This document shows positions 48,201-51,200 of a stretch of DNA of 64,000 nt, in pieces. The stretch's first letter is position 1. Every line of letters starts with the position of its first letter. The stretch lies in NCBI RefSeq assembly GCF_048403405.1, contig NZ_CP183129.1. One strand, given 5' to 3'. The position numbers are program-made. This stretch comes from Escherichia coli (lineage in GTDB: Bacteria > Pseudomonadota > Gammaproteobacteria > Enterobacterales > Enterobacteriaceae).

Positions 48201-51200
48201 GATGCGCGCTTGTACACAGACAGTGTGTTTCAGTAATATGGAGAATAATGAAATGAATAACACAGACACATTAGAAAAAATAATCAGACACCAAAAAAAC
48301 AAAGACCCCGCATATCCCTTTCGGGAGCATTTGTTGATGCAACTCTGTATTCGCACAAATAAAAGAATGCAGGATAATATATCTGAATTTCTGGGGGTGT
48401 ATGGAATAAATCACTCAGTATATATGGTTCTCACCACATTATTCGCAGCGGAGAGTCATTGTCTGTCACCTTCAGAGATAAGCCAGAAACTTCAGTTTAC
48501 CAGAACTAATATTACCCGCATTACAGATTTTTTAGAAAAAGCCGGATATGTAAAAAGGATGGATAGCAGGGAGGATCGCCGTGCTAAAAAAATCAGTCTG
48601 ACATCTGAAGGTATGTTTTTTATTCAGAGGCTCACTCTTGCACAAAGCATGTATCTGAAAGAAATCTGGGGTTATCTGACCCATGATGAACAGGAACTGT
48701 TTGAAGTCATTAATAAAAAATTACTGGCGCATCTTGATGATGTCAGCTCATAAAGCGTGAAATGCCTGAGTATGCCGGATAGCTTCAGGCAAAAGAATAA
48801 TGATTCTTGCAGATGTGTTGTAAGCGTACAGCGAGGGCCGTATTGACGGGGATGTGTTATTCAGCTGGCAGTGCTATGCGCCACGGAAGCAGTTCGCTGA
48901 CCCGGTTGACCGGCCAGTCTGCTATGACGCCAGGCACATGGCGAAGGTAGCTTTCTGGATCCACGTCATTCAGTTTGCACGTCCCGATCAGGCTGTACAG
49001 TAGTGAGGTAGCCTGAGTTTAACGGACACTCCTTCCTGAAATAGAATGGCATCAGAAGGAGCTAAGTAAGCGTGCAGCAAGAACCGTATTGACGGGGATG
49101 TGTTATTCAGTCGGCAGTGCTACGCGCCAGGGGAGCAGTTCGCCGACCCGGTTTATCGGCCAGTCGGCTATGACGTCAAGGACATAGCGGAGGTAGCTTT
49201 CTGGCTCCACTCCGTTCAGTTTGCACGTCCCGATCAGGCTGTACACGGGGTAGTGATTCAGGGAACGGCTTACGGGTGCGGGTCTGACGCAACGGACGCT
49301 GTACTGCCGGGTCATACACCCTACCAGTCAGCGTATCGCTCTCTTTCTGAAGCCGGTTCAGATCGGCTTCCATTTGTGCGATACGGCGGGAGACTTTTTC
49401 GGAACGACTGCCGAAGTTCATCCGGCGGAGTTTATCCAGCTGCGCCTGCAGATGGTCTATTTCGCGCTCCCGGTTGCTCAGCTTTTCCTGCAGGGCGTGG
49501 ATCAGCGCTTCCTGTTCGGCCAGGCGCTGTTTCAGCAGGAAGATGTCGTCAGAAGAGATGTCGTTCATAAGCCCGTATTTTACCGGGCTTATTCTGTGAC
49601 AACCAGGATAAAGAGATTTACAGCATGGTCAGGGAGGTCAGCAGCCGCTTAGGCTGTCGCCAGTCGATACCTTCCAGCAGCATCGCCAGCTGCGCCTGTG
49701 TAAGGAACACTTTGCCATCACGGGCTGACGGCCAGGCGAAGCGCCCACGCTCCAGCCGTTTGGTCAGGAGGCACAGTCCGTCACCGGTGGACCACAGCAG
49801 TTTAACCTGACTGCCGCTGCGGCCCCGGAAAATGAAAACATGGCCGGACATGGGATCGTCTTTCAGCGCCGTCTGTACTTTCGCAGCCAGGCCGTTGAAG
49901 CCATTTCTCATATCGGTGATACCGGCAACCAGCCAAATTTTGGTCCCGGAAGGTAACGGGATCATCGCTTCAGTTCCTGTATCAGCAGAGTCAGGAGCTT
50001 TTCGCTGACATTGCCATTGAAGCGGAGCGTCCCGTGCCGGAACGTTACCTCACAGCTGATACTGAGGGTTTCCGGGTCCTCTGCGAGCGATTCTGGCTGT
50101 TCGGCAGCTGCATCGAGAGTCACAGGAAGTAGCTGGGGGCTCTCTGAAGAAGGTAATAGCAGCTTTCCCTCGCGCCATTGTTGTCGCCATTTGAACAACA
50201 GATTGGCGTTAATGCCATTTTCAAGAGCAAGTTTTGAGATGGATATCCCGGGTTCACAGGAGGCAGCAACGAGCTGCTGTTTAAATTCGGGAGGATAATT
50301 AGGGCAGCCTTTTCGCCTGCCGGGAGTCACATTTTTCTGCATATCTGACACTTTGGTTCCCACTACTTATTTGGTGGACACCACTTTGTCTAATTTGTCA
50401 GATTCTGACCAGACGGTTCAGGCTGTACGCTTACAGAGCTAATAATGAGCAGAAAAAACCAACGTTACTCTAAAGAGTTCAAAGCCGAAGCTGTCAGAAC
50501 GGTTCTTGAAAATCAACTTTCGATCAGCGAAGGCGCTTCCCGATTATCTCTTCCTGAAGGCACTTTAGGACAATGGGTTACCGCCGCCAGAAAAGGGCTC
50601 GGTACTCCTGGTTCCCGCACGGTGGCTGAACTGGAATCTGAAATTCTGCAACTGCGTAAGGCGTTAAATGAAGCTCGCCTTGAGCGAGATATATTAAAAA
50701 AAGCAACAGCGTATTTTGCACAGGAGTCGCTGAAAAATACGCGTTAATCGAACAATGGCGACAACAATTTCCCATTGAAGCGATGTGTCAGGTATTTGGT
50801 GTATCCAGGAGCGGTTATTACAACTGGGTACAGCATGAACCCTCAGACAGAAAACAAAGTGATGAGCGGCTAAAACTGGAGATTAAGGTGGCACATATCC
50901 GCACTCGCGAAACATATGGAACCCGGCGGCTCCAGACGGAGCTGGCAGAGAATGGCATCATCGTTGGTCGTGACCGACTGGCACGTCTTCGTAAGGAGCT
51001 AAGGCTACGCTGTAAGCAGAAACGCAAGTTCAGAGCGACTACGAACTCGAACCACAATCTGCCAGTTGCGCCAAATCTGCTGAACCAGACGTTCGCTCCT
51101 ACAGCACCAAATCAGGTCTGGGTGGCGGACCTGACGTATGTTGCCACACAGGAGGGATGGTTGTACCTCGCTGGCATCAAAGATGTTTATACGTGCGAAA

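Follow-up and report, generated by a model that had tools for sequence, protein, structure and literature searches.

A repeated IS66 terminus between the pap and hly modules of a CFT073-type pheV island in Escherichia coli is very probably a nest of ISEc8, IS600 and an ISEc22/ISEc8 hybrid

Insertion sequences (IS) of the IS66 family generate 8-bp target duplications, and one member of this family, ISEc8, belongs to the chromosome of enterohaemorrhagic Escherichia coli (EHEC) O157:H7 and to pO157. In uropathogenic E. coli, modular and IS-bounded islands have been described in general terms, with variants that differ by whole modules (PMC3203889). The closest described systems are PAI-CFT073-pheV and its relatives, where pap, hly, iha, sat and iuc modules are separated by IS debris. 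The locus considered here lies in a stretch of 64,000 nucleotides (nt) of E. coli contig NZ_CP183129.1 (assembly GCF_048403405.1), hereafter the window, which is 99.6-100% identical to CFT073 and aligns collinearly, over its whole length, with the pheV pathogenicity island of that strain (99.55-99.64% identity); on this comparison the window can be taken to correspond to a CFT073-type pheV island. Between its pap and hly modules, at 48820-49245, an IS66 terminus occurs twice, an arrangement that a preliminary description of the sequence had ascribed to tandem duplication. Evidence presented here indicates that the apparent tandem repeat is very probably a three-level nest, built from ISEc8, IS600 and an ISEc22/ISEc8 hybrid.

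The repeat itself is real. A repeat search detected a pair of direct 180-nt copies, at 48820-48999 and at 49066-49245, whose starts are separated by 246 nt; they are 88% identical, as 158 of the 180 positions match, and the longest uninterrupted match, of 31 nt, covers copy positions 150-180. GTAAGCG opens both copies, and on the minus strand both match the IS66 C-terminal domain PF13817 (E = 1e-15 to 2e-18), in agreement with the earlier observation of two copies of about 180 bp that carry the terminus and the final tnpC codons. Self-BLAST, which had been proposed as a check, matches the copies with E = 1e-60, and the repeat is therefore far beyond chance; the identity of the copies does not fall below a meaningful level. 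The structure of the repeat pair and the flanking IS parts is the same in 44-46 independent complete genomes, and therefore is no assembly artefact. Over positions 48300-50900, the window is 100% identical to CFT073, and the same holds for about 45 further complete genomes, among them ATCC 25922 and additional uropathogenic isolates.

When each copy is compared with catalogued elements, which are numbered here from the tnpC-proximal (right) end in the case of the IS66 family, copy 1 matches ISEc8 and copy 2 matches ISEc22. Pseudogene identifiers in the following list are those of the Prokaryotic Genome Annotation Pipeline (PGAP), and the parts of the nest, with the DNA that borders it, are:

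48805-48819, no strand: 15-bp flank TCTTGCAGATGTGTT, linking the DNA downstream of papX to the ISEc8 end
48820-49003, minus strand: copy 1, ISEc8 nt 1-184, the right end (right inverted repeat and last 49 tnpC codons), cut by IS600; pseudogene C_RS16990
49004-49065, plus strand: IS600 nt 1-62, left inverted repeat and leader, the "unique spacer" of the preliminary description
49066-49245, minus strand: copy 2, ISEc22-type right end (nt 1-180) of the inserted hybrid IS66 element; pseudogene C_RS29655
49246-50434, minus strand: rest of the hybrid, ISEc8-type nt 1254-2442, with the left inverted repeat ...CGCTTAC ending at 50434
49245-49568, minus strand: first 108 codons (5') of the hybrid tnpC
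49618-49965, minus strand: tnpB of the hybrid, intact
49962-50342, minus strand: tnpA of the hybrid, intact
50435-50442, no strand: AGAGCTAA, second copy of the 8-bp target; the first is GGAGCTAA at 49058-49065 (IS600 nt 55-62)
50443-51644, plus strand: IS600 nt 63-1264, orfAB intact with programmed frameshift, end ...ACACCTCA
51645-51912, no strand: hlyD downstream flank, abutting the IS600 right end

Copy 1 is 99.5% identical to nt 1-184 of three reference ISEc8 copies (L002, L006, L013), and thousands of records contain ISEc8-family copies that match 48820-49003 at 100%. Its terminal inverted repeat pairs with 50413-50435, as in an IS66-family element, and its coding remainder of 49 C-terminal tnpC codons has the PF13817 match without a DDE domain, which marks it as a remnant and not an element. 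Copy 2 is 100% identical to nt 1-180 of ISEc22, also of the IS66 family, in three reference loci (L003, L004, L005), as opposed to 88% to ISEc8. The 22 differences between the copies are the differences between ISEc8 and ISEc22, and therefore do not reflect drift after a duplication. The likeness to ISEc8 (99.3-100% identity) extends over both copy 1 and 49246-50434, and includes the GTAAGCG...CGCTTAC ends, the tnpA-tnpB-tnpC order, the 8-bp target duplications (an O157 ISEc8 copy has GAGCTACT on both sides) and an identical TnpB protein (WP_000612591.1); however, no intact ISEc8 is present here, only one 184-nt stub and one left portion of 1,189 nt fused to an ISEc22-type end. The CFT073 island has a full ISEc22 of the same orientation at its pheV-proximal end, whereas in the window only 180 nt are ISEc22-type and the left end of the element that carries them is ISEc8-type.

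The DNA between the copies, earlier given as 65 bp of unique sequence, is 66 nt long (49000-49065) and is not unique, as it consists of ISEc8 nt 181-184 followed by IS600 nt 1-62. When 49004-49065 is joined to 50443-51644, a sequence of 1,264 bp results, which is 99.8% identical, without gaps, to intact IS600 copies in many genomes. This reassembled IS600 has the properties of an IS3-family element, namely its length, its TG...CA ends and a transposase (orfAB, with a programmed -1 frameshift) that PGAP annotates as intact and frameshifted. It differs in being split at nt 62 by the IS66 hybrid and in having no 3-bp target duplication; in E19, S14 and EcPF5, IS600 nt 62 and 63 are contiguous. 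To the right of IS600, the exact base after the IS600 end is the point where about 80% of 316 hly-positive genomes cease to match the window, most of them with hly-cnf1 islands, as in NU14. Because these islands diverge exactly there, IS600 marks the seam between a pap-side module and an hly-side module. The sequence from 51645 onward was also considered as the diverged rest of the ISEc8 tnpC, which was ruled out since it is the hlyD downstream flank common to hly-cnf1 islands.

Several other arrangements around IS600 were observed. The IS600 right end reads ...GCCAGTACACCTCA (window 51630-51660), and at the corresponding place NU14 has ...GGCCAGTAC followed by CTCCCC, an 8-nt resemblance to the IS600 end that may reflect a preference of the IS3 family for end-like targets. 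In EcPF5 (L014 4647-5724), the same ISEc8 left end is separated by 264 bp from an IS600 that is uninterrupted at nt 62; IS30 is found further inside this IS600, and pap and hly are absent from the locus, which makes it a rearranged relative of the seam. Plasmids of EHEC O26, O103, O121 and O145 carry an IS66/IS600-like junction that has 24 extra bp and shares 90.9% identity with ISEc8 nt 85-184 joined to IS600 nt 1-162, which points either to repeated insertion at a hot spot or to an old event that is shared.

The hybrid that interrupts IS600 (49066-50434) is delimited as an IS66-family element, with GTAAGCG... and ...CGCTTAC ends and an 8-bp duplication, GGAGCTAA/AGAGCTAA (7/8), whose target is present once in the empty site described below. 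From 49244/49246 to 50434, it is 99.3-99.7% identical to ISEc8 nt 1252/1254-2442, up to a genuine ISEc8-type left end. It is not autonomous, as tnpA and tnpB are intact and tnpC is broken by an internal deletion of 1,073 bp (nt 181-1253) at 49245/49246, which is frameshifting and shows 2-bp CA microhomology. In the full-length TnpC of 512 amino acids (aa), LZ_Tnp_IS66 (aa 39-110), zf-IS66 (119-161), DDE_Tnp_IS66 (175-461) and a C-terminal element (468-505) follow each other; the window tnpC keeps only LZ_Tnp_IS66 (in the N-terminal 108 aa) and the C-terminal element, and has lost zf-IS66 and DDE_Tnp_IS66, which bears out the earlier remark that the second copy leads into a tnpC without its DDE region.

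Full-length hybrids of 2,442 bp are found elsewhere, downstream of a 426-bp module that is 100% identical to window 48820-49245, on RepFIB-type plasmids (AR_0017, GN02050) and in NCTC86, B-2207 and FDAARGOS_1283. In these elements (L016, L017, L022), the sequence is ISEc22-type from nt 9 to 863/983 and ISEc8-type from 870/1010 to the left end, and they are hybrids of ISEc22 and ISEc8 produced by homologous recombination. The switch from one type to the other (nt 863-1010) falls inside the part deleted in the window. The deletion junction 49245/49246 was found in about 45 genomes, none of them a plasmid, which were assigned to the CFT073-type island by annotation and coordinates and not by individual flank inspection; with this annotation, the deletion therefore most likely arose in place after the insertion. 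Gene conversion of an ISEc8 right end to the ISEc22 type was considered and ruled out, as the first difference at nt 9 leaves 8 nt of outer homology, and given the full-length hybrid it is also needless.

The empty site is found in E19 and S14, where papX is followed by the same 15-bp flank, ISEc8 nt 1-184, IS600 uninterrupted at nt 62 and then the same hlyD flank, and where GGAGCTAA occurs once, as opposed to twice (7/8) in the window. Identity between these two loci and the window amounts to 100% for 50436-50707 and to 99.9% for 50704-55319. This empty site shows that IS600 was already joined to the ISEc8 stub and to the hlyD side before the second IS66 element came, and that the latter therefore arrived by transposition. 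The flank TCTTGCAGATGTGTT is also present in 118UI, SCU-482, 3359 and Nissle. In both E19 and S14, IS30 lies further inside IS600.

The proposed order of events begins with an ISEc8 that would formerly have lain downstream of papX. IS600 inserted into it 184 nt from its right end, and the remainder of this ISEc8 was lost, so that the IS600 right end met the hlyD flank. The hybrid, ISEc22-type over its first ~860-980 nt and ISEc8-type over the rest, then inserted into IS600 nt 55-62 with an 8-bp duplication, which placed a second IS66 right terminus 62 nt past the first and produced the apparent 246-bp repeat. Finally, in this lineage, the hybrid lost its 1,073 bp, leaving tnpC dead while tnpA, tnpB and both ends were kept. 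The steps from the IS600 insertion onward, and the transposition of the unit described next, are shown by sequence comparison. Candidate routes for the loss of the other 2.2 kb of the first ISEc8 are a deletion associated with IS600 and an exchange between IS600 copies.

Before that final deletion, the ISEc8 stub, the IS600 piece and the full-length hybrid acted as a single IS66-type transposon that used the outer right end. A unit of this composition, with a 62-nt IS600 piece and a length of 2,688 bp (2,678-2,686 bp in two copies with small indels), is found at three other sites, each with perfect 8-bp direct repeats and the 426-bp module 100% identical to the window:

Unit site 1: duplication GGAAATAC, on plasmids (L016, L024)
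Unit site 2: duplication ATTCAATC, near fucP, in NCTC86 and B-2207
Unit site 3: duplication AGCCGGAT, between papG and papX, in FDAARGOS_1283

Perfect duplications at three sites imply that the outer ISEc8 right end and the hybrid left end have been used jointly at least three times, and several copies of the unit have intact tnpA, tnpB and tnpC. No duplication surrounds the outer ends of the window copy (GATGTGTT as opposed to AGAGCTAA), which carries the deletion and represents a donor-type locus. A locus of the window type would be where the 2,688-bp unit was assembled, as the other half of IS600 follows the hybrid there. A preference of the left repeat for the outer over the inner right repeat was also considered, and the matches (22/30 and 23/30) give no basis for such a claim.

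IS66 scars in this region had been put forward as potential recombination substrates. For the hly segment this general idea holds, but the pairs that had been named do not. A synthetic product of recombination between copy 1 and copy 2 (papX flank, one terminus, ISEc8 nt 1254 onward) was found in none of 5,426 complete genomes when a match covering 80% of the product length was required. The TTTGCA motif reported near 31.5 kb is present at 31497-31526, inside a third, different IS66-family scar:

31351 to ~31550, minus strand: third IS66-family right-end scar, from a different member, in direct orientation, by iha, truncated ~194-202 nt from the end

This scar shares with copy 2 only 49 nt at 84%. 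An ISEc43-like element (tnpA, tnpB, frameshifted tnpC), at 24545-27009 and inverted relative to the scars, is only 65-69% identical to them. The pairings of copy 1 with copy 2, and of the scars with the third scar or the ISEc43-like element, are poor substrates. The third scar lies ~190 bp downstream of iha, and 1,315 records, O157:H7 and O104:H4 among them, have conserved both it and its flank. Its 92-97% identity to a different IS66 member is confined to nt 1-194/202, and it also ends near the point homologous to nt 180-184.

Another pair of repeats is found around hly. In CFT073, a full-length ISEc22 in the same orientation occupies 3,410,4xx-3,412,8xx, equivalent to window positions of about 64,687-67,140, which is ~15.4 kb downstream of copy 2 and beyond hly. 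The ISEc22-type scar and this distant ISEc22 form direct repeats, between which exchange would add or remove a segment of ~15.6 kb with hlyCABD. The islands of 118UI, SCU-482 and 3359 have papX, the module, a full ISEc22, a phosphoethanolamine-transferase fragment, an integrase and pheV, and lack both the IS600 remainder and hly. In 118UI and 3359, nt 16 and 29 are the only positions at which this ISEc22 departs from the distant CFT073 copy, and both carry the copy-2 bases of the window; such a mosaic is what a crossover of the ISEc22-type terminus with the distant ISEc22 would be expected to yield. The junction of IS600 nt 62 with ISEc22 nt 1 was found in 98 genomes, roughly double the number that have the deleted form of the window. 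A count of 59 hly-less islands, obtained with a 944-bp query, is confounded because pieces on a single IS copy were merged, and the verified examples were used instead. Taken together with the 2,688-bp unit, these comparisons tentatively raise the possibility that the pap-hly seam is the birthplace of a still active, double-right-ended IS66 derivative, which has spread to plasmids and chromosomal sites, and is at the same time a switch for hly loss and gain by way of the distant ISEc22; this wider proposal is somewhat doubtful.

In the simplest alternative to a nest, an IS66 terminus and its spacer would have been duplicated in tandem in situ and would later have diverged to 88%. Such an event would produce the head-to-tail geometry, the 246-bp period and copies that stop at near-homologous points (nt 184 and nt 180), but it has a negligible probability, as each copy is 99.5-100% identical to a different catalogued element with ISEc8-versus-ISEc22 differences in place of random drift, the spacer is an IS600 left end whose continuation lies 1.4 kb away, the DNA after copy 2 contains no second spacer, and the empty-site allele exists. 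An illegitimate fusion of an ISEc22 end to an ISEc8 body at 49245/49246, giving a 1,369-bp piece that then transposed into IS600, is likewise very improbable. While in the window alone the two types do meet at the non-homologous positions 180/1254 with 2 bp of microhomology, a full-length hybrid exists with the same module at 100% and switches type at homologous positions (863-1010), and the restriction of the junction to about 45 genomes, CFT073-type by annotation and without a plasmid, speaks against a mobile deleted derivative. For the exchange around hly, where loss of 15.6 kb would be the one-step reading, the hly-less arrangement could instead be ancestral, with hly entering later as a circle that integrated by ISEc22 homology and left the scar as a product of gain. 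The pattern at nt 16 and 29 fits either direction, the pap alleles of the hly-less islands are 4% off the window and these islands are thus no recent derivatives of this exact island, and the module-plus-ISEc22 form seems nearly as frequent as the hly form, with roughly 20 and 30 of 60 rows, respectively, by annotation labels. Gain nevertheless seems rather unlikely, because the circle would have to consist of ISEc8[1254-2442]-IS600[55-1264]-hly...-ISEc22[1-180], which presupposes the nest seen here, and because strains with the empty site have IS600 joined to hlyD before the arrival of the hybrid.

A nested history with later exchange at ISEc22 thus remains the preferred reading, and the following observations weigh against it. 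The target duplication GGAGCTAA/AGAGCTAA matches at 7 of 8 positions and not at all 8. A 3-bp IS600 target duplication was looked for at the flanks of IS600 and none was found, with TAG on the left and CTC on the right; these flanks are ISEc8 nt 184 and hlyD downstream DNA, and one side must therefore have been rearranged. The deletion in the hybrid starts (nt 180/181) 4 nt from the homologous IS600 cut in the older ISEc8 (nt 184), a coincidence that could be due to chance (about 0.4% for a match within 4 nt) or to the conserved CCGATCAGGCTGTACA motif being a fragile site or a target. The distant ISEc22 is seen in CFT073, beyond the window end, and is not in the window, with which the pap alleles of the hly-less islands share only 96% identity. 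In Nissle 1917 (CP007799.1; L011 6586-10347), papX is followed by a nearly full ISEc8 with a 148-bp deletion and, at nt 1251/1252, a 213-bp tandem duplication that encloses a 47-nt piece of IS600, then by IS600 nt 55-1264 and a deletion almost to pheV; hly is absent, with the boundary exactly at the IS600 right end. The breakpoint at ISEc8 nt 1251/1252 is common to this record and the window. This arrangement is not predicted by a simple history, and the record, an old assembly, may be misassembled.

Two further proposals were set aside in this connection. Nissle was not used as an intermediate for the event order, as its fine structure fits no simple history. IS600-mediated causes for the proximity of nt 180 and nt 184, namely a second insertion at a hot spot, a mini-IS600 bounded by the left repeat and a GTACA pseudo-end, and an adjacent deletion, fail to predict the junctions: there is no 3-bp duplication and an extra CGGG is not accounted for.

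The genes that border the nest are:

48202-48753, plus strand: papX, the pap-side neighbour
51913-53349, minus strand: hlyD, the hly-side neighbour

Between them, the RefSeq annotation gives three transposase pseudogene fragments, tnpB, tnpA and the IS600 transposase. In strain 536, homology of the papX flank to the window ends at 48804, and an ISEc8 right end, cut by IS100 at nt 537, lies downstream of a papX homologue (L007 6106-6748), ~110 bp further out and behind a different flank, and represents an independent insertion near the same gene. Strain 536 was for this reason ruled out as a common ancestor of the papX/ISEc8 junction. CFT073 also has a 2.4-kb ISEc10 (IS21 family) at window ~31762-31766, which the window lacks; the DNA thus stems from a close relative of CFT073 and not from that strain.

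A search of the literature for this nest, the 2,688-bp double-ended unit and the ISEc22 pair flanking hly found no published description. The underlying biology is standard for the IS66 and IS3 families and for modular uropathogenic islands, with family mechanisms as already known, and the nest has no evident function in this genome, because the hybrid lacks a functional tnpC and IS600 has been cut off from its left end and leader. The main value of the analysis is a correction, in that nested transposition rather than duplication accounts for the repeat, so that recombination risk is to be judged against the right partners. Two results are of mild interest: a 2,688-bp unit that transposes, and the ISEc22 repeat pair around hly. 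The unit appears mobile on sequence evidence, and in automated annotation it could be mistaken for an IS with a separate pseudogene beside it. The 180-nt ISEc22-type scar and the full ISEc22, which bracket hlyCABD, would provide a concrete candidate route for loss or gain of haemolysin in CFT073-type islands.

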